A DNA stretch of 64,000 nucleotides from Eledone cirrhosa (lineage: Eukaryota). The notes below the pieces were generated by a model that saw nothing but the letters and a program-made list of their open reading frames with translations, had not been told where the DNA came from and did no database searches. Numbering within the stretch: the stretch's first letter is position 1; each line of letters begins with the position of its first letter. The position numbers and the translations under genes are program-made. Below are positions 1-18,090 of the stretch, piece by piece. The stretch spans positions 109,802,001 to 109,866,000 of the forward strand of contig OZ024744.1 of assembly GCA_964016885.1 (NCBI GenBank), in the 5' to 3' direction.

Positions 1-2
1 AA

Positions 3-286
3 GCCCTCCCTCCTGGCTCAGAAGCACCATGGGTCCAGTGGAAGACACTCAACCCCCTGAGAACAGGAATGGGGAGATCAAAAGCTGCTATGGCCAGATG
101 GGGCTACAAGACCGACCCAACCATCTGTGAATGTGGAGAGGAGGACCATACGATGCAGCACTGCCTTGTTTGCCCTCTACTACCCAACCAGTGCAGCTTA
201 AAAGATCTTGCAGAATTTAATAATGTGTAAAGAAATGGGAAACTCTCATATAACCAGATGCTTCGAAGATACGAAAAGAAGAAGAA
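3..286 (+). mobile_element. 3' end of a non-LTR retrotransposon (ORF2 C-terminus with CCHC zinc knuckle, short 3' UTR and GAA-type tail); continues upstream of the window
   Basis: The frame from 3 to TAA 228-230 reads ALPPGSEAPWVQWKTLNPLRTGMGRSKAAMARWGYKTDPTICECGEEDHTMQHCLVCPLL. This is the LNRLRTG...CxC-x8-H-x3-C pattern of LINE ORF2 C-termini. It is followed by GAAAAGAAGAAGAA at about 273-286. Confidence 0.75.
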
Positions 287-427
287 TCTTCACTATTTTC
301 CGTTCATTGCCAGGGAACGTCTTCACAAACCAAAGTATCGTCTGACTGCTTTCCTTCGGTTGCAACGTTTTGCGAAATATTTATTTCTGCGTTCACAGAT
401 TGACTTTTTTTAGTTTCAGAAGATCCC

Positions 428-1380
428 GTTAAGGGTGAAAGCAGCGATTCTTTGCTTAAACTTTAAACTGTTATTTTATTTTAATAAATATTTGGTTGCG
501 GGTTCTTATATATTTGATATATCCTTATCGAGCCCTCTTTGGATTTTAGTCTTCACATTTATTATATATATATATATATATAGTATTAAGGATACTATTT
601 ATGGTTATGTATATACTAAAACTTTTTATAGTTATATATATTTTAAACCCTAAACAGTGAAAGACAGTAATATATTACTACCTTATTACCAGTAAGATAA
701 ATAGCTCAATGTAATAACATCAGTTGTTCTACAGAGCAGTTATATAGAATTCACATGAATCAAAGTTCTGTTCAAACCATTTATTAGCTTACAATTGTTT
801 CATCCAAACCGAGGTTTGGAATCTTCGGAACATTTTTCAATGTTTGTTTACATACATGACCTCCTTTCCAACACAAGAGACATACAGATACATATGTATA
901 TATTGATGCACAGTGGGGTGACATCCATTATATTATTTCTAAGGATAAAAACATCCCGTATCTATCGATTGGTCTATTTTAGACCATTCGAGGGAGTACC
1001 AAAGGGGCACAAAGAATTGTTCTTTGTGTACCACTGAAAAATTTTGCATTTTACAAAACTTGAAAGCCACTTCAACTTGCCTGAACTCCAAGCCTGAGAT
1101 CTTCAGATGTTGTCCTCACCTGAAATCACATCCGATCTGTAACTGGATTGACATTCCTACGATAACTCAACCACCTTGAACTCCTTCTCTGCTCTCTACG
1201 CCTTACATCCACTACGATTTTTTTACATTCTGAATTCACTTTCTGTACTCTTATATTCTTTTTCTCCCTTATCTCCCCTTATATTTAAACCTTTTCCTAT
1301 GTCATTTATTCCCCCTTTTCTCCCCTCCTTTCTACCTTACCCTTCACATACCCACCTTTTTTATTTTTATATATTTATTT
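428..1380 (+). mobile_element. Non-autonomous Penelope-like element remnant (C-terminal GIY-YIG endonuclease fragment plus pyrimidine-rich tail), copy 1
   Basis: 961-1179 translates SIDWSILDHSREYQRGTKNCSLCTTEKFCILQNLKATSTCLNSKPEIFRCCPHLKSH, matching the W-x-IL...Y...C-x-LC-x2-EK...LN...E...C-x-H tail of PLE GIY-YIG domains. 428-466 and about 952-1380 are reverse-complement homologs of 5640-6099. Confidence 0.65.
787..831 (-). ncRNA. Type I hammerhead ribozyme motif, slightly degenerate (U4C)
   Basis: Minus strand reads GTT CCGAAGA T-TCCAAACC-TC-GGTTTGGA-T GAAA CAATTG TA AGC. The core is one mismatch from CUGANGA, stem II is 7-8 bp, the stem III insert CAATTG is palindromic, the UH site is UA, and stem I is 3 bp. 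Confidence 0.65.
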
Positions 1381-1530
1381 CTGTGTGTGCGCGTGTGTGT
1401 GTTGCGCATATGTGTATATATGTATGTATATATATATATGTATGGATATGTATGTGTGTATGTATGTTTATATATCAGTATGTATATGTATGTGTGTATA
1501 TAATTGTATTTTATATGCTTCTGTTGTATT

Positions 1531-1589
<59 letters not shown>

Positions 1590-1979
1590 AAAATTAAGAT
1601 AAATTAAATGAATTTAATCTAAATCAAAATTATGGGTGTCATGCCAGAGAGACATGCGTCATATCACCCGGAAAATAAGCTCTAAGATTCTAACGAGTAG
1701 GTCCGAGCATTTTATAATAACTAGAAATTGATTAACATATAAATAAACATGAATAATCACAGGAGATAATTTTTACAAGTGGGTAACCACACATAGCTAG
1801 GTAGGTAACTAAATAAAGTTGACCAGAACTTCAAAAATAGATACCTTATAATATGATTAATCTTCCCTGTATATATTCCATTAAAGAAATATATTTCACC
1901 AATTAATCGGATGGTAAACCACGGAAGTGGAGACTTGGATTTTCAACAAGGAAGAGGTTCCAGCGATCCGTGTTTACAC

Positions 1980-2059
<80 letters not shown>

Positions 2060-2257
2060 GTGTGTATGTGTGTGTGCGTGTGTATATTTGTTTGAGTGTA
2101 TTTTTATGTAATTGTTTTTGTGTGTATATATATATTAGCCTCAGAAACAGCTTGAGCTCTGCCGTGGGGTCATACTTTTTCCTATATCTGTATATACATA
2201 CGTATATGTATGTATGTGTATGTATGTATGTGTGTATTTGTATGGTTGTATGTGTGG

Positions 2258-2337
<80 letters not shown>

Positions 2338-2569
2338 ATGTATTTGCATAATACTATACAGAGATTTAATGCTTATTTTCATTGATCATTTGCTCCAGGA
2401 ACTTATTGAGTGCTCTAAATCAGCTTTAAACATTTATACCCTTTTCTAATTATTTATTTATTTATTATTTGTCGTATTCCCAACTTTTTATTTTTATATA
2501 TATATAATATTTATGTATTTTCTTATATATATATATATGTGTGTGTGTGTATGTGTATGTGTATATATA

Positions 2570-2613
<44 letters not shown>

Positions 2614-2726
2614 GGAGGTGAGTTTTATTGTAGTACAATAAAGCAATGCAGATATCGGATAAGAAGCACTCTACAGTTTGTGGGACTGGAGTATGCATAA
2701 TATAAGATCAAAAGATGGTTAAAGGA

Positions 2727-2812
2727 GTTCAATATATTTTATTATGCGCATTTCAAAAACAAACATCATCAAATAATAATATTTGTGTTTTCATCAGATA
2801 AAACAGGAGAAC
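2727..2812 (-). ncRNA. Type I hammerhead ribozyme, mirror copy on the minus strand (left palindrome arm)
   Basis: Exact reverse complement of 2921-3006 because of the palindrome. On this strand it is followed by the conserved downstream hairpin (2693-2667), an AATAAA and then (TA)n. Confidence 0.85.
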
Positions 2813-2920
2813 ATGATATGAAGGCTAAAAAAACACTTGTTGATAGTGCAGTTTTAAATCAACATATATGTTGATTTAAAACTGCACTATCAACAAGTGT
2901 TTTTTTAGCCTTCATATCAT

Positions 2921-3006
2921 GTTCTCCTGTTTTATCTGATGAAAACACAAATATTATTATTTGATGATGTTTGTTTTTGAAATGCGCATAATAAAATATA
3001 TTGAAC
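2921..3006 (+). ncRNA. Type I hammerhead ribozyme with intact catalytic core (right palindrome arm)
   Basis: Stem I is TGTTTTAT(2928-2935)/ATAAAATA(2991-2998) plus GTTC/GAAC. CTGATGA is at 2936-2942, a stem II of about 16 bp at 2943-2978, GAAA at 2979-2982 and palindromic TGCGCA at 2983-2988. U16.1-A17 is at 2989-2990. Confidence 0.85.
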
Positions 3007-3028
3007 TCCTTTAACCATCTTTTGATCT

Positions 3029-3065
<37 letters not shown>

Positions 3066-3607
3066 TATATATATATTTAAGAGTTAAACAAGGTTCATAT
3101 GAATACATCTAAGAATGAGTTTTACACACATACATATGTGTGTGTGTATTTGTATGTATGTGTTTGTGTATATGTATGTATATATGTATATATGTGTGTA
3201 TATGTATTTGTGAATATATATATATATATATTTATATATGTATATATGTTTGTATGTATGTATTTGTGTATGTGTATGTGTGTGTATATGTATATATATA
3301 TATATGTATGTGTATGTGTGTGTATGTATTTATGTTTACGTATGTATGTGTATGTGCAATTGTGTGTATTGCTTACCACGTGTGTTTGTACATTTATCTG
3401 TTGCCTGTATCGCTGTCAACTTTATAATAATTCTTTCATCTATTTTTTATTCTTATGTGACGGTATTTTTATTATTACATTTTTTCTTAAAATTATTTGT
3501 GTGTGCGTATGTAGGTGTGTGTACATATATCTACATTTGTGGATGCGTATGTATGCGTGTATATATGTGTGTATGTATGTACGTGTGTATATATGTATGA
3601 TTGTGTG

Positions 3608-3640
<33 letters not shown>

Positions 3641-3647
<7 letters not shown>

Positions 3648-3905
3648 AAGTAATTCCGTCGGAAAAGACCAGGAAAAAAGAGTGCTCTATGTAGGTAACA
3701 GAGCTTAATAGTTATGTAATAAACAACATAAGGCAATTATTCCATTTACCAGTGGTTTCTTAAAAGCAAAAGATTTTGCTTTCAATCCTCAGAATGAAAA
3801 AATCCTGGTCTGTTTATTGAATTTGGATTTTAAAAACAAAAATGCAATCTATATGGAAGTGAGGCTGGAGAAGGAAGAAGGAAAGGAAAAATAAAATCAA
3901 ACTAC
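3641..3905 (+). repeat. Dispersed repeat module (copy 1; inverted copy at about 6320-6575, partial direct copy at about 5422-5510)
   Basis: TGTGAAGTAATTCCGTCGGAAA...GAGTGCTCTATGT...TTTCAATCCTCAGAATGAAAAAATCCTGG...GTGAGGCTGG matches the reverse complement of 6320-6575 with scattered substitutions. Confidence 0.85.
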
Positions 3906-3943
3906 ACATGCAAACACACACACAAAAACACAAAAGCATACAT

Positions 3944-3982
<39 letters not shown>

Positions 3983-4229
3983 CATATATATACATATATA
4001 CATACATATACATACACATATATATACATATACATAGACTCATACATACACACACACATATATACACACATATATGTGTATATAAATACACACAAACGCA
4101 TATATACATACGCACATAAATATCAACACATCCATACATACAAATAGATATATACAACCACACACACATATATATACACACATACATACACATAGAAACA
4201 TAAATATAAATACATATACATACACACAT

Positions 4230-4269
<40 letters not shown>

Positions 4270-4272
4270 TGT

Positions 4273-4353
4273 CTATATTGTATTTTGTCTGAGGAAGGCA
4301 TAACATATTGTTAATATGATATCCCTGAAATATATATAATGAAATAAATATGG
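4273..4353 (+). ncRNA. Type I hammerhead ribozyme with intact core inside an island of about 210 bp (4267-4475) flanked by (TA)n
   Basis: Stem I is TATTTTGT(4281-4288)/ATGAAATA(4339-4346), extendable to 4273/4353. CTGAGGA is at 4289-4295. Stem II AGGCATAACATATT/AATATGATATCCCT is 14 bp with 2 mismatches. GAAA is at 4327-4330, then palindromic TATATA, then UA at 4337-4338. Confidence 0.8.
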
Positions 4354-5074
4354 TTTTATAAATATAGTTTCCATTTATTTAATATCATAAATATACTCCA
4401 AATACTTGTTGAGTGCTTTTATATCAGTTATAAATATTTACTAGTTGTAACCCAACAATTTAAATATAACTTTCCATATATATATATATATTTATGTATA
4501 CAAGCATACACATACACAAACATAGCCATACACACATACATAAACATACATACATACATGCACACAATCGTACATATATACACACGTACATACATACACA
4601 TACATAAATGCACTCCTCTACATATTCACACACGCAAATAAATATAAGAAAAAATATATATATTAAAAAAAAAAAAATTTTTTGACAGAGATACAGAACG
4701 CAGCTAACTGGACAGACACGCGTGGTAAGTAATACACACAAATGCACGTATACATACGTACGGAATAGTAAATACATACACACACTCTCGCACATAAATA
4801 TACATATACAAATACATAAACACATATATACACATACATGCACAAACACGCACACGTATACAATATATACACACACATATGTATATGTAATTATATACAC
4901 ACACATATATATATATATATATACATAAATATAACACACACACATATATATATACATACACACATACATATACATACATAGCTATACAATTATACACATA
5001 CAAATACGTACATATCATAAACACGCACAACCAAATACAAACACACACACACATACATACATATATATATATAT

Positions 5075-5124
<50 letters not shown>

Positions 5125-5246
5125 AACCATAGAGAAAAATACTGCAGGTAGCACATGGATAACATGTAATAAAATGAGTCCCTCATCAGTGATTTGCCGA
5201 CGATCATAGATATTTCATTGCATTAAAAATCATATACCTCACGTCG

Positions 5247-5327
<81 letters not shown>

Positions 5328-5639
5328 TACACATATACATGTGTGTGTGTGTGTGTAAAACTCAGTCTTAGATAATTCATATGAACCTTACATATACATA
5401 TATATAGTAGTAAAGTAATAAAGTAATAAGCAACATAAGGCAATTATTCCATTCACCAGTGGTTTCTTAAAAGCAAAAAATATTTCCTTCAATCTTCAGA
5501 ATGAAAAAAATATACATACATATACATACATATACACACACAAATATATATATATACATATATATACACACACATATACATACATATATATATACATATA
5601 TATACACACAAATATACATACACATACACATAGGAGTGT

Positions 5640-6099
5640 GAAGGGCAAGGCAAAAAGAATATATGGGGGGGGGGGGCATAGGAAAAGGTGAAATATAAGG
5701 GGAGGTAAGGGAGAGAAAAAAAAAATATACAAGAGTACATAACGTAGATTCAGCAAAAAAACCGAAGCAGAAGTAAAGAGCAGAGAAGGAGTTCAAGGCG
5801 GTTGATTTATCATAGGAGTGTCAACCAATTACAGATCAGATGCGATTTCAGATGAGGACAGCATCTGAAGATCTCAGTCTTTGAGTTAAGGCAAGCGGAA
5901 GTGGCTCTCAAGTTTAGCAAAATCCTATACTTTTCTGTGGTACACAAAGAACAATTCTTTGTGCCCCTTTTGTACTCCCTCGAATGGTCTAATATAGACC
6001 AATCAATAGAGTACGGGATATATATAATAAATATATATATAATAAATATTATATATATATTAAAGTTTAAGCAAAGAATCGCTGCTTTCACCCTTAACG
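5640..6099 (-). mobile_element. Non-autonomous Penelope-like element remnant (GIY-YIG C-terminal fragment), copy 2, inverted relative to 428-1380
   Basis: ORF 5810..6091(-) contains IPYSIDWSILDHSREYKRGTKNCSLCTTEKYRILLNLRATSACLNSKTEIFRCCPHLKSH. It shares the CGTTAAGGGTGAAAGCAGCGATTCTTTGCTTAAACTTTA end with position 428. Confidence 0.7.
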
Positions 6100-6319
6100 T
6101 ATATATATGTATGTATATATATATTTATATGCATGTATGTGTGCGTGTTTGTGTATTTGTGTGTATGTGTTTGTATGGATATGTTGATATATATACGTGT
6201 GTATGTATGTATGTGTATATGTATGTGTATGTATATATATATACATATATATGTGTGTGTGTGTATATATATGTGTATGTATATATGTGTGTGTATGTAC
6301 TTGTGTGTGTGCATGTGTG

Positions 6320-6575
6320 TTTATTTTTCCTTTCCCGCTTTCTTTTCCAGCCTCACTTTCATATAGATTATATTTTTGTTTTTAAAATCCAACGTCAATA
6401 AATACACCAGGATTTTTTCATTCTGATGATTGAAAGCAAATTTTGTTTGCTCTCAAGAAAACACTGGTAAATGAAATAATTATCTTATGTTATTTATTAC
6501 ATAACTATTAAGCTCTGTAACTTACATAGAGCACTCTTTTTTCCTGGACCTTTCCGACGGAATTACTTCACACAT
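6320..6575 (-). repeat. Inverted copy of the 3641-3905 module
   Basis: Reverse-complement similarity over about 250 bp, extending into the adjacent degenerate microsatellite. Confidence 0.85.
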
Positions 6576-7449
6576 ATATATATATGTATGTATGCGTGTA
6601 CGCGTGTGCGTGCGTGCGTGTATGTATGTATGTATGTATGTATGTATGTATGTATGTATGTATGTATGTATGTATGTATGTATGTATGTATGAGGGAGCT
6701 TATAGATAGGACAACACACGCTGTCTTTTCGTGGGGTAAGTTTTTAATTAATTTTTGTATTCTGAAACATCAAAATACAACAATTTTTTGGTCACTGGAC
6801 TCAGGAATGTCACGACAGAAGTTTGTGGAAGTTACACAAATATTTTAGTATATTTTAGCAGAGCAATCCTTATTTATATTTTACATTTTACATTTACTTA
6901 CATCTCAATATAACATGGCTAAAATTCAAATTTTGCAAAGAGAAGAAAACGGACAAATGAACTAGATACATCTCACTGTCCCCCACCTCCACAATAACGT
7001 CTACACTCCCTCCCCACCATCACATGTCATTACCCCATCTAGACTAAAGTCATCGACCTGTTGTCAAACTCTCTACTCTGTGTTGAACGTATATATATGT
7101 ATGTATATGTGTGTATATACATCACTCAGTCAAACGACCAGATTTCAACCCAACATCTACAACAACAACAACACCGGCACTAATGATTACAGCAACAACA
7201 GCTTCAGAATGAACAGAAATCAACATTTACAACAACAACAGAGGCATCAAACGATAATAATAATTTAATAAAAAAATTAAAAAAACCACAAACAAACAAA
7301 AACAACTCAAATAACAAAACACACACACACACGCACACAACACAACAACAACATCAACTACCACCACCACCACCACTACCGCCGCCGCCGCCATCACCAG
7401 CGACCGGGCCTTAAGAAAATAACTTTAATAATAATTTTTCTGCTTTTGG

Positions 7450-7585
7450 CATGGATCCAGCGACTGGTCCAGCGCATCACTGGTACTCTCTTTTGTTGAC
7501 TCCGTGGGGGGTGAAAGGCAAGGTTGACCTCGGCGGGATTTGAGCTCAGAGCGTGGAGGGCCGTGACTCTATGCTGTAAAGCAAT
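7450..7585 (+). mobile_element. SINE-like interspersed repeat fragment (cephalopod-type family), copy 1
   Basis: CCAGCGCATCACTGGTACT...GAAAGGCAAGGTTGACCTCGGCGGGATTTGAGCTCAGAGCGTGGAGGGCCGTGACTCTATGC is homologous to 17941-18050. The family is recognised from memory of Octopus genomes, not from a search. Confidence 0.65.
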
Positions 7586-7724: not shown

Positions 7725-8194
7725 AAGTGAGTAGAGTAGCGTGTGTGTGTTTGCTGTATGTATGAGTGTTGCTGTGTGCGCATATGTATGCGTGTGTGTG
7801 TATGTCGTACGTATAAGTGTCAATAAGTGAGTTTTTTTATTTATTTTTTTATTTTTCGCGGGGACATAGAAATAATCGGGCTGGATGCCCGATCGCGCAG
7901 TTAAACCACTGGGAGTGAAGAACCCCTAGCCCTTGTCAGGGCATTCTTCTAGGAGAAGGCATCTCGGGAAACTGGGTTAACTCCGATATAAAACCTGCGG
8001 CTCAGTAGTTACCGATGATGTTGATCTTTTCTTCTTTTCGGGTTATAGCTACTGTCGCTCAGAGAGTGGGATTGGCTCAGTGCACAGTCTTTCCTCACTT
8101 TAAAAATATTCGTCACGCACAGGCATTGCACGAGTGCATTAATAATTATTAATATTATTATTACTATTATTATTACTTTTTTTTTTTCAATTCA

Positions 8195-9619
8195 ATGATG
8201 TTCCAGAACAATATAAAAGAGATAATTGGCAATTTAGGTTCTGGAACAAAAAAGATAATTGGCAATAAGGGCAGGGGCCCCAGGTTATCACAGCCTGGGT
8301 CCGCTCGTCATCGTGCCATTGTAATAGAGCCAAACAAGGCACTTAGTCTTGGCTGCTGGAACGTACGGACGCTGCTTGATAGGGATTCCTTGGAGCGTCC
8401 TGAACGAAGGACCGCTCTTGTTGCAAAGGAGCTTCGACGTTACGATCTTGACATCGTGGCTTTATCTGAGACGAGGTTAGCTGGAGATGGTCATCTTACA
8501 GAATTTTGTGGAGAATATACATTCTTCTGGAAAGGAAGAGATGAAGGAACCAGAAGAGAGGCTGGGGTAGGATTTGCTGTTAAGACTGTTCTGAATAAAT
8601 TAGAAGAATTCCCAATAGGGATTAGTGAGCGTCTTATGTCCATGAGAATTCCGCTGGACAAAGGAAGATATGCGACACTGGTGAGTGTGTATGCTTCAAC
8701 TATGAATTCTGTCGATGAAGAAAAAGTGTCCTTTTACCATGCCTTGAAAGGTGTTTTAAGAAATATCCCTCAGGCAGACAAAGTCATCGTGCTTGGTGAC
8801 TTTAATGCTAGAGTGGGTAGGGATTTTAACACATGGAATGTAATCGGAAGGCATGGGGTGGGAAAGTGTAACAACAATAGTATGCTCCTGTTGCAGATGT
8901 GTGAGGAGCTGGATCTGTGTGTTACCAACACCATGTTCCAACAAAAGAACAAATTCAAGACCACATGGATGCATCCTGCATCTAAGGAATGGCATCTTTT
9001 GGACTACGTCCTAGTCAGGATGCGTGACAGACAGGATGTGCAGTGTGTTCGTGTTCTTCGTGGAGCTGAGTGCTGGACGGACCACCGCCTGGTACGCGCA
9101 AAAGTGAAACTAATCACTAAACGTAAAATCCGGGCTCCTGGTGTTGCCCTGCCCAAAAGATTGAATGCTGCTCGTCTTAAGGATAAAAATGTGAAGAGGA
9201 CATTGGAAGAAGAGATGCAGGCTGCAGATCTTGGTGAGGATTGGCCGACCCTTAAAAAGTCGGTTTATGATGTAGGCAGGCGTGTTCTGGGATTGGTGCA
9301 GAGAAAACATCAGGACTGGTTTGATGAGAATGATGTACATATAGAAGACTTGTTGGCTGATAAGAGGCCTGCTCTGTCATGCTACTTGACGGCAAAACCA
9401 CAGGAGAGGAATACGTTGCATGAGGAACTCAAGGATGTAAAATCACGCGTTAGGCGGAGTCTTTCTCAGATGAAGGATCAGTGGTGGAGTGAGAAGGCTG
9501 GTGAGATACAAACTGCGTCAGATTCCAATAACACAAAGCTGTTGTACAGTCTCTTGCGTAAGGTTTATGGACCGTCTTCTTCTCTGGTGCCACCGCTTCG
9601 CAGCAAGGATGGCAAATAA
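8195..9619 (+). pseudogene. RTE LINE apurinic-like endonuclease domain and linker
   Basis: Motifs LGCWNVRTL, DIVALSETR, GVGFAV, VLGDFNARVG, TWMHP..KEWHLLDYVLV, CWTDHRLV and HQDWFDEND. Confidence 0.93.
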
Positions 9620-11304
9620 CTTCTTCGTGACTCACAAGGAATTCTACGAAGGTGGTGAGAGCACTTTGATGATCTTTTGAATCAGCCGTCTGTCGTCAGT
9701 GAAGATTTCCTCAATCTCATTCCAGAAAGTCCTGTGAAAGTAGCCCTCGCAGAACCTCCGACGCTTGTGGAGGTTGCAGTGGCTATCTCGAAGCTGAACA
9801 GTGGAAGGTCTCCAGGCATGGATGACATACATGCTGAGCTCCTACAATATGGTGGTGAGAGACTCCTGCAACATCTTAACTCTTTATTTGGCAGGATATG
9901 GGCTAATGAATCCGTACCTGAGGACTGGAGAGATGCAGTAATGGTGGTCTTGTACAAGGGAAAGGGTAACAGGAACGATTGTGGGAACTACAGAGGTATA
10001 TCATTGCTTTCTGTCGTAGGGAAAGTTTTATGTAGGGTGCTTCTAGACCGTCTGCTGACGCACATTGCAGATTGTGTTCTTCCTGAAAGTCAATCTGGTT
10101 TTCGTGCTGGGCGCGGCACTACTGATATGATCTTCTCAGCTAGACAGCTCCAGGAGAAGTGCATGGAACAAGGCTTGGATCTGTATCAGGTTTTTGTAGA
10201 TCTGACAAAAGCTTTCGATACTGTTAACAGAGTGGCATTGTGGAAGGTTCTCCAGAAACTTGGTTGCCCTGATAAGTTCCTTGCTTTAGTTAGATTTTTC
10301 CATGACGACATGAAGGCTTGGGTTAATGTCGGAGGTAACATGTCGGAGCCTATCTCAGTAAAAAATGGAGTGAAACAGGGGGATATTCCAGCACCGACCC
10401 TGTTTTCCATATACTTTGCAATGGTTTTCTGTATTGCATTCAGGAATTGCGAGCATATTTAACATCAGGCGCTTTGCTGCAAAGACAAAAGTATTTAACA
10501 TCAATCATAAGAGACCTCTTGTATGCAGATGATTGCGATCTTGTAACGCACACAGAGAGTGATATGCAGCACATTTTGAATGCATTTTCTGACGCTTGCA
10601 CTGCCCTAGGATTGACTATCAGTCTCAAGAAAACTGTCGTCATGTACCAACCTGCCCCTGGTAAGCAGTACACTGAACCAAATATCTATGTGTATGGTAA
10701 ACGACTGGTTGATCAGTTTGTCTACCTGGGAAGCACTGTCAATCGATACAGCAACCTTGACAGTGAAATCTCACTTAGGATTAGGAAAGCAAGTGATGCT
10801 TTCGGAAAGCTAGAAAGGCGACTCTGGGGTCGGCGAGACATATGCAGGGGGACAAAGGTAAAGGTGTACAAGGCATGTGTGCTCTCTTGTCTTCTTTATG
10901 CATGCGAGATCTGGGTCACATATCGATACTACCTTAAGCAATTGGAGCGTTTCCATCAGATGTGTCTCAGACGGATCCATGGCGTTCAGTGATGTTGAGA
11001 TTTTGGAAAGCTCTATGTGTGACAGTATAGAAGCTCTTGTGCTTAAGCAACGACTCCGTTGGAGTGGTCACCTTGCCAGGATGAAGGATTCTTTTATGGA
11101 GAGTTGGTTAAAGGAAAACGACCGCCACATAAACCAAAAAAGAGGTATAAGGATTCCTTAAAAGCCTCTTTGAAAGACGCTAACATCTCTGCTGATACAT
11201 GGGAAAATATTGCTGCTGATCGTAATAAATAGAGAAAGACTGTATATGAGGGAAAAGTTGCCTTTGAGGCATCTCGAATCGCATACGAGAAAGTAAAGCG
11301 GGAT
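9620..11304 (+). pseudogene. RTE LINE reverse transcriptase and thumb region (disrupted)
   Basis: Motifs GNYRGISLLS, ESQSGFRAGRGTTDMIF, FVDLTKAFDTV, GVKQGD, LLYADD (second frame), FVYLGS, RLRWSGHLARM and KRYKDSLK. Confidence 0.93.
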
Positions 11305-11661
11305 GTGAGGAAGGGCATTGCTGTTGCACTTCCAGACGGCGAGGCTCCTCCTATGGTGCTGACATGCAGCGTATGTGCGAGACTCTGCCTAAGCAAAGCT
11401 GGACTCGAAAGTCATCTTCGCAGTCATAAAGTAAGACCAGTGGTTGACTACCAGGCTGCTGTTGGAGATGCTACTCCTCATGCTTGCCAAACATGTGGTA
11501 GAGAATGTAAATCAGCAGGAGGGCTCAAGCGACATGCAAAAGTACATGAACTCCAACCACAGCCGGCTATTCCCAGTGAATGTTTTGGTTGCCGACTCTA
11601 TGCAAGACATTTTAGATCATTGGCTGAGTTAAAAAGCCACATTCGATCGCAGCGCTGTTAG
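11305..11661 (+). pseudogene. RTE LINE C-terminus with three C2H2-type zinc fingers
   Basis: CSVCARLCLSKAGLESHLRSH, CQTCGRECKSAGGLKRHAKVH and a degenerate CRLYARHFRSLAELKSHIRSQ. Confidence 0.85.
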
Positions 11662-13214: not shown

Positions 13215-14006
13215 TCACGCGATCTCGTTCGTGATGTATCCTCTTTTGGCACTGTTAGGGAGGGCGGACTTGTAGTGAACGAACAGGTCCCTGCAGGCTG
13301 CCTTTCGGTAGAAGTTGCAGTGGATCCTTCCCTGTTCCGTGATGTTGATTCGGAAGTCGAGGAGGGCAAGTGACCCGTCTTCGTTGGGGTGTTCAACACT
13401 GAAGTCAATGTTCTCGTCCGTGTTGTTGAACGTCTCATAGATTCTGTTCGCCGTGTCTTGGGAAGGTGTGAGGATGAGGATATCGTCCACGTACCTTGAG
13501 AAAAAGGCTACGGCGTTGGGGTGGCAGGCGTTGAGTGCCTTGCGTTCGAGGTTGTCCATGTAAGAGATCGCTAGCACACCTGATAGGCTTGATCCCATGG
13601 GCAATCCCGAGGTTTGTTGGTATGTTTGGTCAAGTAATCCGAAGTAGGTGTTGTCGACGACGATGGATAGGAGTTGGTGGATGTCAGTGGTGGTGAGCCT
13701 GAAGCAGTGTAGGTCGGTGGATTGGACGCGTTCCAACAGTATATTGACGGCCGGGAGTGCCGGGACCGAGGTGTAGAGAGCGACTACATCAAGGCTGAAG
13801 GCATATCTGTTATTCCTTCTGGTTTCGGGATCCATTTGATGCAGGCGCTTCAACACCTCCTCGGAGCTGTTGACGTGTCCCGGCAAGGTGTCTAAGATGG
13901 ATTTGTGTATTCTGGCTAGGAGCCATGAAATTTTGTAGAGTGGTCCCTCCACGCTCGATACGATGGGCCTGATCTTCAGGTCGGGTCCCTGTTTGTGTGT
14001 TTTCAC
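13215..14006 (-). pseudogene. Penelope reverse transcriptase (N-truncated)
   Basis: Motifs KTHK...IRPIVS, FSLDVVALYTSVP, QTSGLPMGSSLSGVLA, RYVDDIL, LALLDF, FYRK and HYKSALP. Confidence 0.93.
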
Positions 14007-14055
14007 GAGCCTTGATGTAGTCGCTCTCTACACCTCGGTCCCGGCACATTAGGAT

Positions 14056-14794
14056 ATGGCGACGAGACTACGAACGAGCGAAGCGATTAGGGCATTTACC
14101 GGTGATTAGGGCATTTACTGGTCGCAAGCTTACAGAAGATAGAAGATGTGGCTGACCTCATGGCACTGTACCTCGAGGGGGCGCGTTGGTACTCTTCCTT
14201 GAGTTGGATGAACACAGCCAAAGGGATGCGCAAAAGATTGAGAGGCGCATGATGGAAGCGTTTGCGGAGGGACCGTTAGCCGCTTTTGCTAAGCTGGCAA
14301 GAATTAGATGGAACGGTGAACTCGTTGACATTTTCGCAGCGGAAATACGGCGATTGGCCATGTTGGCTGGATATCAGGTGGAATGCGAACGCACGGCGCG
14401 GTTGGCGTTCATAAATGGATTTCCAGACGACATAGCGGTGAAACTGCAGCAAGTCCCGGGTTACAAAGAAATGGAGATGCGTTCACTGGTGGAGCAAGCC
14501 CGCATCATAGCAGAAGATGCCAAGAAGAGTGTCGCGGCGATAGCAACTACAGAGGCTCAAGACAGTTGGCAGCGGAATGGTGAAAGGGAGGCAACCACAG
14601 TACGCGGTCGCCCGCGAACGTTTAGAGGTCGCTGTTTTAGGTGCTAGGGCCCGCACATAGCGAGAGACTGTAGAGAGTCAAGGCCGGAAATAATATGCTA
14701 CCGGTGTAAGCGACCAGGCCACATCGCTACTAACTGCGACCAGGGAAACGATCCAAGGGGAACTACTGCGCCGGTAGTTTCCCCTTACGAGTAG
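14056..14794 (+). pseudogene. gag: gypsy gag with two CCHC zinc knuckles
   Basis: MATRLRTSEAIRAFTGD start and LYLEGGAL. Knuckles are CFRC*GPHIARDC (premature TAG at 14645-14647) and CYRCKRPGHIATNC. The natural stop is at 14792-14794. Confidence 0.85.
14743..14786 (+). promoter_or_regulatory. -1 programmed ribosomal frameshift signal (G GGA AAC plus downstream stem-loop)
   Basis: The heptamer at 14743-14749 is in the gag frame. It is followed by a 5-nt spacer and the hairpin AAGGGGAACTACTG-CGC-CGGTAGTTTCCCCTT. The -1 frame is open into the protease ORF. Confidence 0.8.
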
Positions 14795-14805
14795 AGGCGC
14801 TGCCC

Positions 14806-17520
14806 GTGGTGGAAGTCTTCGTGAGGGGAAAGCCACAGCGACCCCTCGTGGACACGGGTTGTACGACGATACTGGTGACCGCGGGGGTGGCACAGAGGTG
14901 GAGAGGGAAGAGCAGCGTAAGGGCAGTCGACGGCAGGAAAATTGAATGCAGAGGTCGCAGCGAGATGGAGATGGCGGTACGGAGAAGGAAAATAAGGCTT
15001 TCTGCCATCGTAGTTGACAACGTGGTGGATGGGAACGGCGTGGTTATGGGCGTGGACGCAATTAGCCGTCTAGGAGGCGTCACAGTGAACAACGTCGGTG
15101 TGTCGTTTGGCGGCGCTGCATCGGTATGCGCTGTGAGTACGCGACAGGAGAACGAGAAGGCCCACGAGGAGAAATACCCCGCTTACACTGTGCAGGACAA
15201 AGACTTCAAGACCATGTTCGATGGGCAGCGATGGGTTGTTGAGTGGTACTGGAAGGGAGAACCACCAACACTGAAGACCAAAGTGGGCTGCTATAAACAC
15301 ACATTGAAGGGAAACATTAGGAGCGAGTTCGAGCGAGAGTTAGAGAGAAGGATTGGGAGGGCATACTGATTCCCTGGAAGGAGGAGGTGAAGTGCGGAGT
15401 ATTGCCGTTAATGGCGGTGGCGCAACCCACGAAGAACAAGGTGAGGACGGTACTAGACTTTCGGGAGCTGAACGAGCACGTGGCATGCCACACGGGTGGC
15501 GAGGTCACGGATGTCTGTGGGGAAACCCTGCGTGAGTGGAGACGCATGACGGGGGGTTCCGCAATCGTAGATCTAAAGTCGGCATACTTACAATTACACA
15601 TAGATGAGAAGCTTTGGTAGTATCTGCTGGTCAGGTATAAGGGCCGGAGATATTGCCTGACCAAGCTCGGTTTCGGGCTGAGCTCCGCACCGAAGATCAT
15701 GGCGGCGGTCCTCAAGACCATTCTGGGAAAGGCCGACAAGATGAAGAGGGCCTACATTGACGCCATCCTAGTGGACGAGTCTGTAGTGTCGGCAGCGGAG
15801 GTCACGAGCCATTTACAGGGGTATGGACTGGCTGCGAAGCCGTCAGAAGCGTTGGGGGAGGAGCCGCGCTGGGGCTTAGGCTACGGTAAGACAGGACGGG
15901 CGTCTTGGTATTCCAGAGGGGAAATGAAGTTCCAGAACTGGGCCCAAGTATGAGTAGGTGGGAGCTTTTCTCGATGTGTGGAAAGTTGGTGGGTCACTAC
16001 CCGATTGCTGGGTGGCTCCGGACGGCATGCAGCTATGTCAAGAGACGAGCGGGAGGGGTGACTTGGAGTGACAGAGTGGGAGAGAGGACAGTGGCCATGG
16101 TGCAGGAGATCGTGGAGAGGGTGAAGGCCGACGACCCAGTGCGGGGACGCTGGTATGTTCCCAAATCGCAGAGCGGGACCGTATGGTGCGATGCCAGCAG
16201 CATAGCGCTGGATGTCACGTTGGAGATAGGAGGTGTTGAGGTCGAGGATGCAGCCTGGCTTAGGAAGAAGGACGACTGCAACCACATCAATGTGGCCGAA
16301 CTGAACGCGGTGTTGAGAGGGGTGAACCTCGCCCTGAGGTGGGGTCTGCACACCATCGAGATACGCACCGACTCGGCTACTGTACTTGGATGGGTGAGAT
16401 CAGTGCTCACCAGTGAGAAGAGAGTGCGAACGAGAGGGGCGGCGGAGATGCTGATAAAGCGCCGCCTGGGAACATTAGGAGAGCTGGCCACCGAGTTCGA
16501 CCTGAGGCTGAATGTAGTTTTCGTGCCCTCAGAGAAAAATAGGGCGGACGTCTTAACCAGGGTGAAGAAAGCCTGGATGGAAGCGCCGGAGGAGGTAGAA
16601 GAGGAGATAGCTGCCGTGTGTCGGCTGACCGGAGTCGCATCTGAAAGGGTTGCTTGACATGCATCACATGGGAGTGGATAGGACCCTGTTCCTAGCCAGT
16701 AGAATCGACTCGGACGTTAACAGACACAGTGTTCAAAGGGTGGTTAGAGGCTACGTCCGATGTCAGTCCATTGATCCCGCCCCGGGTGTGCACGAAACGG
16801 GAAGCCTCCCGGTGGATCTCGACTGGAAGCGATTGGTGGTGGATGTAACGCACTACCGACAGGAAACGTACCTCTCGATGGTCGACTGTAGACCAGGATG
16901 GATGGTGATATGGAGGGAGATGAAGACTGGAACGGCCGAGGAAATCATGCGGACGTTGAGAGAGGTGTTCTTGGACAACAGCGAAGCGTTCAGCTCGGAG
17001 GCGCTGAGGGAGATGCTCGATGGATGGAAGGTGGACTGTTTCTTCAGAGCAGCGTGCAGGCCGACCGGAAATGGAATTGTGGAGCGACACCACCGGACGA
17101 TCAAGGCAATGGCGGAGCGGGGCCACATCTCACCAATGGAGGCAGTGTTCTGGTACAACATGTCCCCTCGGGTGGGACAGGTTGAGGAATCGGTGCCACA
17201 CAGAGCAGTATTCAGATACGAGTGGCGGCACCCGTGCACGCCACCACAACGGCCAGTGGGGAGAGAGAGTGGATTCGTGTAGGTGGGCGAAGAAGTCTGG
17301 GTTAAGGCCCCAGATGTACGTTGCACATCTCAATGGGGAAGGGGAACGGTGACGGCTTAAATTCCCAGAACAATGTGTCCGTGGACGGAGTCCCACGTCA
17401 TGTCCTGGATGTCCGTAGAATCACTGTCAACGGACTCCGAGGAAGAGGAAACCCAAAGTGCCTCCCCAACACTGAGGAGATCGCAAAGAAGTCGCAAACC
17501 ACCAACCTGGACAGCAGACT
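14806..17520 (+). pseudogene. pol: gypsy pol (protease, RT, RNase H, integrase), disrupted
   Basis: Protease: LVDTGCT. RT: VRTVLDFRELN, DLKSAYLQ, LGFGLSSAP and YIDA (YxDD mutated). RNase H: WCDAS, INVAEL, RTDS, NRADVLTR. Integrase: HMGVDRT, VDVTHY, LDNSEAF, NGIVERHHRTIK. Confidence 0.92.
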
Positions 17521-17571
17521 TTCATATGCAGAAGGACGAGGGGGAAATTTATCCTTGAGATCAGCGGGGCG

Positions 17572-17844
17572 TGTTGGTATGGTGTAGTGTGCGGTGGCCG
17601 GAAGCTGGGGAGTGCTCGACCGGAAGAGTGCTTGACCGGAAGGGTGCTTGGCCGGAAGGGTGCTCGACTGGAAGGGCCTTCAGATCGGTCTCTCTCTAGT
17701 GGTGATCAGGAACTGTGTGGACGCAAGTTTGGCAGCTCCCGGGTGTTAATGAGTTGGACGCACGTGGAAGAGGAGAAACCAGCCATGGGATTTAGCGGCA
17801 CCTATGAAAAGCGGTAAGTGAGATAGCTTTTTCTAACTACAACT
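17572..17844 (+). repeat. Putative 3' LTR with internal 16-bp tandem repeats
   Basis: Begins TGTTGG after AGATCAGCGGGGCG and ends near CTACAAC. CCGGAAGRGTGCTYGR is repeated about 4-5 times at about 17598-17676. The right boundary is approximate. Confidence 0.55.
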
Positions 17845-17907
17845 AGCACACCATGATTCAGAAATAAAACTACATGTGAACCCATATAAAATGTTTATAT
17901 AATAAGT

Positions 17908-18090
17908 GTTTCTACTTTTTGGCACAAGGCCAGCAATTATCCCAGTGCATTACTGGTACTTTATTTTATCGACCCTGTAAGGATATAAAGGCAAAGTTAA
18001 CCTCGGCGGGATTTGAACTCAGACCATAAAGGGCCGTAACTCTATGCGTCAAAATATGGCGTCCGACCCTCTACCGATACAGCCAATCCA
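17908..18090 (+). mobile_element. SINE-like interspersed repeat (cephalopod-type family), copy 2
   Basis: TTTCTACT...GGCACAAGGCCAGCAATT...CCCAGTGCATTACTGGTACTTTATTTTATCGACCC...AAAGGCAAAGTTAACCTCGGCGGGATTTGAACTCAGA is homologous to 7450-7585. Confidence 0.7.

Follow-up and report, generated by a model that had tools for sequence, protein, structure and literature searches.

The short ribozyme-bearing islands described here lie in a 64,000-nucleotide stretch of the Eledone cirrhosa genome (contig OZ024744.1, positions 109,802,001 to 109,866,000, forward strand), which we call the window and whose coordinates are counted from its first letter. They are very probably the 5'-truncated 3' ends, or pseudo-long terminal repeats (pLTRs), of several families of Hydra-clade Penelope-like elements (PLEs). 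The best explanation of the whole is probably that they are Hydra-PLE 3'-end stubs, made by a reverse transcriptase (RT) that docked on a hairpin and started 5' of it, primed at a nick in (TA)n. Positions 1-7100 are a mosaic of (TA)n and (TG/TATG)n microsatellites around islands of 50-450 nt. The islands, their hammerhead ribozyme (HHR) motifs, and the accompanying remnants of a GIY-YIG endonuclease (EN1 and EN2) with its 3' untranslated region (UTR) are as follows; CM denotes the covariance model described below.

Island I, 286-560 (+): variant HHR and a decayed hairpin near 515-535, then (TA)n; a partial copy at 6099-6033 (-); read by eye.
Island A, 587-938 (-): probable pLTR or 3' end of a high-copy family, with HHR, hairpin 737-702, a tail of about 115 nt and (TA)n at 582-562.
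EN1, 953-1380 (+): 5'-truncated Hydra-type GIY-YIG C-terminus with pyrimidine-rich 3' UTR, head-to-head with A.
Island F, 2345-2490 (+): decayed hairpin 2392-2413 and a tail related to that of C, with no HHR core.
Island B, left arm, 2611-2866 (-): HHR 2805-2735, hairpin 2692-2666, 55-nt tail, (TA)n.
Island B, right arm, 2867-3036 (+): perfect inverted copy with HHR 2928-2998, ending in (TA)n.
X, 3361-3496 (+): unique segment within the microsatellite-rich 3' UTR of the plus-strand copy of the D/E family.
Island D, 3643-3934 (-): HHR 3799-3740, hairpin 3704-3682 (CM E=3.7e-5), 39-nt tail, (TA)n.
Island C, 4268-4475 (+): HHR 4281-4346, hairpin 4395-4416, 59-nt tail; (TA)n on both sides.
X', 4608-4740 (-): homologue of X in the 3' UTR of the minus-strand copy.
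Island G, 5410-5508 (-): D-family HHR 5506-5447; leaves the D sequence about 11 nt before hairpin 1 and enters TA.
EN2, 5634-6019 (-): second Hydra-type GIY-YIG C-terminus with 3' UTR, 84% identical to EN1.
Island E, 6322-6573 (+): 89% identical to D, with HHR 6416-6476, hairpin 6512-6534 (CM E=4.1e-5), 39-nt tail, (TA)n.

The two arms of palindrome B are 170 nt long and 100% identical about the centre CATATATG, and each carries a type I HHR with core CTGATGA and stem III TGCGCA, at 2805-2735 (-) with cleavage predicted after 2743 and at 2928-2998 (+) with cleavage predicted after 2990. The type I HHR of island C (core CTGAGGA, stem III TATATA) is predicted to cleave after 4338, and a descriptor scan recovered HHRs of the D family in D (cleavage predicted after 3747) and in G, the latter with a G at position 17. 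A CUGANGA/GAAA core, three stems and a UH cleavage site are all present in B, C and D, while the HHR of E has a mismatch in stem III. Island A bears an HHR at about 832-786 (-), with stem III CAATTG and cleavage predicted after 790; its core at 828-822 is the variant CCGAAGA (U4C), the window copy has 3 stem I pairs, and this variant core and short stem I leave it out of strict HHR descriptor scans. The variant in island I has the core CAGAAGA at 417 and a long stem III. Stems II in the window families are long, up to 36 nt. Four strict HHR motifs were found in 4,587 non-repeat island bases against a shuffle mean of 0.007, and none of 150 shuffles reached four; when 3 stem I pairs were accepted the count rose to five against a mean of 0.013, again with 0/150 as high. 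Palindrome B is counted once in this test and the fifth relaxed motif is taken to be that of island A. We regard the window hammerheads as real motifs whose self-cleavage is predicted. Whole-island folding was significant relative to shuffles for D (z -2.7) and E (z -2.6). Significant DNA similarity (0/300 shuffles) joins B to C and C to F; as none was found between A and B, C or D, the islands belong to several families and not to one.

The assignment to the Hydra clade comes from the endonuclease remnants. The remnant has 371 relatives at E<=0.001, and among the 150 relatives listed C.LC occurs in 134 and C.H in 146. Compared with a profile of 41 full-length Hydra-type proteins, aligned from the relatives of one matched full RT-EN protein, it scores an hhalign probability of 97.8 (E 8.6e-13). 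The coding matches span 953-1301 (+) in EN1, whose C-terminal pattern is WSIL..CSLC..EK..LN.K.E..CCPH, and 6019-5677 (-) in EN2. Both show the CxxC-E-N-CxH pattern at the C-terminus of the GIY-YIG domain, an ending that passages of Craig 2021 (PMC8557442) describe as Hydra-specific, in a clade with canonical HHRs that nearly always targets (TA)n and includes one Octopus family. The truncated remnants do not include the GIY-YIG core, where the CCHH of Penelope/Poseidon, Neptune and Naiad would lie; the C-terminus that they keep fits Hydra. Pfam recognises neither the remnant nor the Hydra proteins; a word-indexed protein search with the 67-aa remnant gave no match, viral contigs yielded no Hydra relative, and the window holds no RT portion of the island families.

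Islands D, E and G lie on the same strand as Hydra-type EN C-termini and downstream of them, connected through a collinear 3' UTR. Read along its own strand, each EN remnant leads into a pyrimidine-rich UTR, then a microsatellite, X or X', and a D-family end; X and X' are similar beyond chance (0/300 shuffles), and the polarity of the TG-rich microsatellite strand tracks element orientation in both copies. The simplest reading of this arrangement would be a nested layout, EN1 > UTR > X > [D < X' < EN2] > E, into which F, B, C and G would have inserted later; C is nested inside the microsatellite of the minus-strand copy. Through this collinearity the Hydra-type EN ending is assigned to the D/E/G family; the assignment leaves out A, B, C and F. 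The 5' truncation points of the two EN remnants (the 925-960 region and 6019) differ by no more than about 25 nt, which could reflect a shared deletion derivative instead of random truncation.

The hairpin was characterised in 89 Hydra loci, 77 from metagenome contigs and 12 of the 14 from genome contigs (L096 and L097, weak non-PLE matches, were left out). Between the HHR and the start codon these loci carry the motif GCTC-stem-loop-stem-T[TCA]-GAGCAC-T, usually twice, and the order in a full-length Hydra element is HHR, hairpin 1, hairpin 2, ATG. The Hydra N-terminal motif comes after 40 of the 100 HHR copies; of these 40, two hairpins are present in 33 and at least one in 36. The seven without two comprise one spurious open reading frame (ORF) call, one HHR of another type, one copy whose leader is short, two copies whose outer stem is variant and two in which the script overlooked both hairpins. 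The strict motif has 58 matches in the 7,879 nt 3' of ORF-linked HHRs and 2 in 224,278 nt of ORF interior. Spacing is regular across 34 internal copies: 38-57 nt from cleavage site to hairpin 1, 35-57 nt from the end of hairpin 1 to hairpin 2, and 3-40 nt (mostly 13-40) from hairpin 2 to the ATG.

Conservation of the fold was assessed in 45 non-redundant hairpins. Inner pairs 1-4 are held in 45/45, 32/45, 26/34 and 18/27, against shuffled means of 34.2, 18.4, 14.1 and 11.9; the excess for pairs 2 and 3 was matched in 0/2000 shuffles and, in a second shuffle test, in 0/500, counts that are not probabilities because the hairpin sequences are related. The excess is seen only with a 2-nt bulge, and bulges of 0, 1 and 3 nt give none. 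A CM built from these 45 hairpins, all from outside the window, made 154 matches in the 89 loci and recognised D and E in the window at E=4e-5. The interior of the B hairpin is identical to that of a hairpin in L031. Neither the second PLE of the window (described below) nor any of 7 HHRs of other stem III type, used as the only controls, is followed by the hairpin at 20-75 nt. Pattern matches in L001-L006 and L098 were set aside as chance, having no HHR-plus-hairpin context and no CM match. Rfam holds no matching family for the hairpin (8 Hydra loci searched). A selenocysteine insertion sequence is recognised by its AUGA/GA quartet; the hairpin has none, and that reading was rejected. One Hydra element, at L031:285-330, has a core that departs from CUGANGA and keeps stems I-III, the twin hairpins and an end at site 2. 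Loci L084-L095 are Hydra PLEs on contigs of bacterial metagenome-assembled genomes and of a symbiont assembly, and are probably host DNA.

To map insertion ends, terminal copies were set against ORF-linked ones from their own family. In a comparison anchored on the HHR, which took in 17 copies and left out 4 cut by a contig end, all 13 uncut copies have their end 0-6 nt ahead of one or the other hairpin. In a BLAST-based comparison made without anchoring on the HHR, 15 of 20 ends fall at -12 to +2 of a hairpin, nine at hairpin 1 and six at hairpin 2 (P=5e-9 against a uniform null of 0.15), and 14 of the 20 copies enter TA. The two analyses share most copies. The 20 were kept from 109, the rest being dropped for identity below 92% (23), continuing into their own hairpin (3), being cut by a contig end (6) or entering the ORF (57); the unfiltered map has 14 of 33 ends near a hairpin, a figure kept low by cross-family alignments, which break off just past the HHR. 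Two families use both end sites. The window copies can be placed on the same scale. The right arm of B falls 4 nt short of hairpin 1 and G about 11 nt short, and the tails past hairpin 1 measure 39 nt in D and E, 55 nt in B-left and 59 nt in C, which is about the start position of hairpin 2 and the point at which their TA runs begin.

These results confirm the observations of an earlier, sequence-only reading of this stretch and support its interpretation in part. It had placed type I HHRs in islands A, B and C, where they do lie, with no shuffled control reaching the motif count (0/150), and had put a spacer of about 50 nt between HHR and a conserved hairpin, which we measure at 42-56 nt from the cleavage site in A, B, C and D (42 nt in E by recount). 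It had linked the islands to PLEs, and the EN remnants do match the Hydra-type PLE profile and are collinear with D, E and G; its option of solo pLTRs fits the 3' ends of Hydra PLEs. Targeting of (TA)n agrees with the TA runs that terminate both arms of B, C, D, E and G, and the expected multi-copy status with the occurrence of A in 2,516 contigs of run X1. Flanking by (TA)n was right for C, which has it on both sides, but not for A, whose 5' side adjoins the endonuclease remnant and whose tail runs to about 115 nt. The three islands listed all stand, but D, E, G, F and the variant HHR at 286-560 had been overlooked, and the single family proposed keeps its shared architecture of HHR, spacer, hairpin and tail while dividing into several sequence families.

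Family A is present in many copies: besides the X1 contigs, it matches 35 contigs in X4, 4 in X6 and 7,270 reads in X10. A second organism (X4 record 11) has the stretch 592-825. In X1, copies extend beyond the point where the window copy stops (304-314 reads, loose ends at 932/938). Summed contig depth in this run is about 1-3e5 over the A HHR versus 0.7-4e4 over the EN remnant, values that are not copy number. At 830 the depth shows G in 32,822/33,328, and at 786 about half is T; both changes improve stem I of A. Loose ends at 829 and 857 retain the same core variant, so U4C is best seen as a family trait and not as decay. Such a core is weaker in vitro yet sufficient in a viroid, according to parts of Perreault 2011. 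Read pile-ups in X10 at 669/671, 751 and 793/796 were considered as element ends and rejected; all fall on AATT sites (one of which is created by the majority variant at 672) and are read as RAD-digest ends. By eye, A may have a divergent second hairpin at about 665-645, with no ATG after it.

These observations suggest a mechanism. The GIY-YIG endonuclease would nick (TA)n, and the DNA 3' end so released would anneal to a tandem or read-through RNA, at the TA-rich sequence immediately 5' of one of its hairpins. Docked on that bulged hairpin, the RT would start just 5' of it and leave the docking hairpin uncopied. A start at hairpin 2 would then yield a tailed copy that includes hairpin 1, as in B-left, C, D and E, and a start at hairpin 1 a tailless copy, as in B-right and G. 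Palindrome B would arise from one start per site on opposite strands, joined head-to-head at CATATATG through TATA microhomology, and early termination would produce stubs of 100-350 nt. The (TG/TA) microsatellite in the 3' UTR of the D/E family may itself be a target, so that stubs would pile up and nest. The HHR would likely serve only to cut multimeric transcripts. Of the two hairpins a solo stub retains hairpin 1 at best, and daughters of the stub would lose it. Stubs would therefore come close to a dead end, in contrast to retrozymes that are tandem or circular. Whether the hairpin is an RT docking signal we judge an even call; we advance slightly more tentatively the fuller proposal that, clade-wide, the twin bulged hairpin docks the telomerase-related RT and sets each start 5' of it, in the manner of a template-boundary element. 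Docking at two hairpins would explain the optional PLE 'tail' in the Hydra clade.

A number of results weigh against this account. The Rfam search of the whole window gave no hammerhead at E<=1, and whole-island folding is not significant for A (z -1.2), B (-1.6) or C (+1.3). The link from EN to D/E spans microsatellites and rests on two copies, and no ORF in the window is linked to A, B, C or F. Hairpin 2 was not seen for any window family. The CM is weak for C (0.16), A (0.42) and F (2.1) and gives no sense-strand match for B; the hairpins of A, B and C were found at 50-56 nt by a descriptor written after they had been seen. The perfect score of inner pair 1 is partly circular, the motif finder having demanded one inner pair, and the outer stem is nearly invariant (2/45 compensatory). 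Among the 20 BLAST-compared ends, which are non-independent (five come from one reference, and all ends hit in 10/14 references), five miss, at -62, -43, -29 and two at -16; of the last two, one is an internal copy mis-called via an indel and the other lies at -4 in the HHR-anchored comparison. The two-site rule does not explain the tail of A, which goes on for about 115 nt after hairpin 1 and meets no ATG. TAT/ATA triplets cluster just 5' of the hairpins, and a null weighted for them (0.45) gives P=0.006; TA-richness accounts for part of the clustering of ends at hairpins.

This last point feeds the main rival to RT docking, which accepts the islands as Hydra-PLE ends but gives the hairpin another role, as a DNA element for EN recognition or promotion, or as a signal by which the RNA, cut by the HHR and uncapped, is translated, with ends set by TA microhomology and clustering before hairpins only since TA-rich stretches prime best on (TA)n. 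The weighted null already expects 45% of the ends there. The hairpin is strongly conserved in sequence, with AG-CA-CT quasi-palindromic and flipped to AG-TG-CT in B, C and F, and hairpin 2 mostly lies 13-40 nt 5' of the ATG. PLE promoters are placed in the pLTR in the part of Craig 2021 (PMC8557442) that treats them, and for recognition the endonuclease of Drosophila virilis Penelope depends on the tail, a finding cited by passages of Frangieh 2024 (PMC11167929). The covarying inner stem and fixed 2-nt bulge instead suggest a single-stranded fold, and ends lie mostly 0-5 nt from either hairpin, with both sites used in one family; we think this alternative somewhat unlikely. That the motifs are chance folds of AT-rich DNA, with palindrome B an assembly fold-back artefact, would agree with the missing Rfam match, the weak folding energies of A, B and C, and the complete identity of the B arms, across which no read aligned. 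We consider it extremely improbable given that 0/150 shuffles match, that the same architecture recurs in dozens of independent loci, and that the right arm of B ends at a predicted site in an inverted layout canonical for PLEs.

A different alternative, which the sequence-only reading had inferred and our results do not support, is that the islands are a non-autonomous, retrozyme-like family mobilised in trans. In its present form it would concern A, and perhaps B, C and F, as retrozyme monomers or pLTR mini-elements copied by a Hydra RT, possibly through circular RNA. Family A is very abundant in X1, present in a second organism, uniform in its U4C core and without an ATG past its possible second hairpin, and the preprint Li 2026 (10.64898/2026.07.22.740005) states, in part of its text, that the retrozymes of animals arose from pLTRs and leave monomers in large numbers. 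Parts of the same preprint and of Cervera 2020 (PMC7229834) define retrozymes by tandem HHR units yielding circular RNA. At least two head-to-tail HHR units were sought in the window by masked self-comparison and a tandem-repeat scan, and neither these nor terminal redundancy were found. As for a fixed unit length without coding remnant, D, E and G depart from it in carrying an EN remnant, and other copies of A continue upstream. Island C starts 21 nt before its core and B 69 nt, resembling random 5' truncation. Non-autonomy may hold for A and for B, C and F, but we rate it as quite unlikely; the succession of HHR, spacer, hairpin, tail and (TA)n is simply the way in which autonomous Hydra PLEs end.

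Animal non-LTR retrozymes resemble the islands: they too are short, non-coding, AT-rich and PLE-related in the passages on them in Cervera & de la Pena 2020 (PMC7229834) and Li, Clavereau & Pollet 2026, and share with the islands a type I HHR with short palindromic stem III. Known relatives are the Hydra-clade PLEs catalogued in Craig 2021 (PMC8557442), including Hydra-1_Obim of Octopus bimaculoides, with the same CxxC/E/N/CxH end, 3' type I HHR and (TA)n. In the consensus sequences taken from that paper the hairpin is visible by eye in the 3' ends of Hydra-2_Amil, Hydra-2_Ajap and Hydra-1_Crog, and two copies stand at the 5' end of Hydra-1_Ajap. Stem III of Hydra-1_Obim (CCAATGG) resembles that of island D (CCACTGG), but the window families are different ones, set apart by HHR stem II and tails, by the length of stems II, by the microsatellite inside the 3' UTR and by the U4C core of A. 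Palindrome B has the canonical PLE layout of inverted head-to-head pLTRs with the tail on one side, as outlined in part of Arkhipova et al. 2013 (PMC3846280); its extension, also on one side only, takes in hairpin 1 and a further 55 nt, about 86 nt in all against the 30-40 nt given there, and its insert is wholly non-coding. The window thus adds members to a clade already known, of which the islands are no more than ordinary debris.

A biochemical precedent is offered by Poseidon of Anolis, for which passages of Frangieh 2024 (PMC11167929) report that the protein nicks AT-rich DNA and extends both strands, that the RT has two internal RNA starts whose gap equals the genomic tail, and that insertion proceeds in vitro without need for HHR cleavage. 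The Poseidon starts described there involve one AC-rich stem-loop inside the ORF (+111-118), whereas the Hydra starts proposed here would lie in the 5' UTR, each 5' of its own conserved bulged hairpin and about 57-85 nt apart. The twin hairpin and its fit to insertion ends are apparently undescribed, our search having covered article texts and Rfam, with figures, Repbase and subscription papers outside it. In the parts of each text covered, neither 'hairpin' nor 'stem-loop' occurs in the main text of Craig 2021 (PMC8557442) or in Cervera 2014, 'hairpin' is absent from Arkhipova 2013 (PMC3846280) and 'stem-loop' from Cervera 2020 (PMC7229834); a 2026 paper on Octopus vulgaris repeats mentions neither Hydra nor hammerheads in the portions covered of text and supplement.

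The surroundings of the islands are rich in other repeats. Upstream, 1-285 (+) is the 3' end of a LINE-like ORF with a CECG..HTMQHCLVC zinc knuckle and a GAA repeat at its end. In the island at 1589-1980 (+) a GC-closed hairpin and GAAA, without a CUGANGA core, come ahead of a weak hairpin-motif match at 1673-1715 (E 4.1), and the island at 5125-5244 (-) has a CTGATGA core at 5189 without a matching GAAA half. Two copies of a short interspersed repeat, 76% identical, lie at 7424-7574 and 17894-18047; we take it to be of a type typical of octopus genomes. The repeat content as a whole and the resemblance to Hydra-1_Obim would by themselves suggest that the host is a cephalopod. An RTE-type LINE at 8153-11661 (+) encodes an APE endonuclease, RT and C-terminal C2H2 fingers, with stops and frameshifts. 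A second PLE with RT and GIY-YIG, not of Hydra type and with a CA-rich 3' region, occupies 14027-12585 (-); it showed no relatedness to the Hydra protein, and the hairpin CM gives no match there. A Gypsy-like element cuts it near 14030, and 40 bp are duplicated there in inverted orientation (13757-13796 / 14047-14008); the Gypsy-like element, a degenerate LTR retrotransposon, covers 14050-17700 (+), with a 16-bp tandem repeat at 17612-17676 close to its right end. From 18932 to 64000 (45 kb) the window is filled by a 22-bp satellite of about 2,050 copies with 91% match, with (CACCAT)n and (CTT)n tracts ahead of it.

How the RTs of PLEs, the closest relatives of telomerase RT, choose their start, and why the tail is optional, are open questions, and the one in-vitro study to report two internal PLE starts names no conserved signal in the passages describing them (Frangieh 2024, PMC11167929). 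A motif conserved in Hydra elements from corals to cephalopods, occurring twice and matching the two places where insertions are seen to end, makes the start-site question directly testable, and the hairpin offers a marker for Hydra-derived stubs and non-autonomous elements in microsatellite-rich genomes. If the docking proposal is true, the PLE 'tail' would have a defined RNA signal, and a portable tag of 25-35 nt could make any RNA, including that of family A, a template for (TA)n-targeted insertion.

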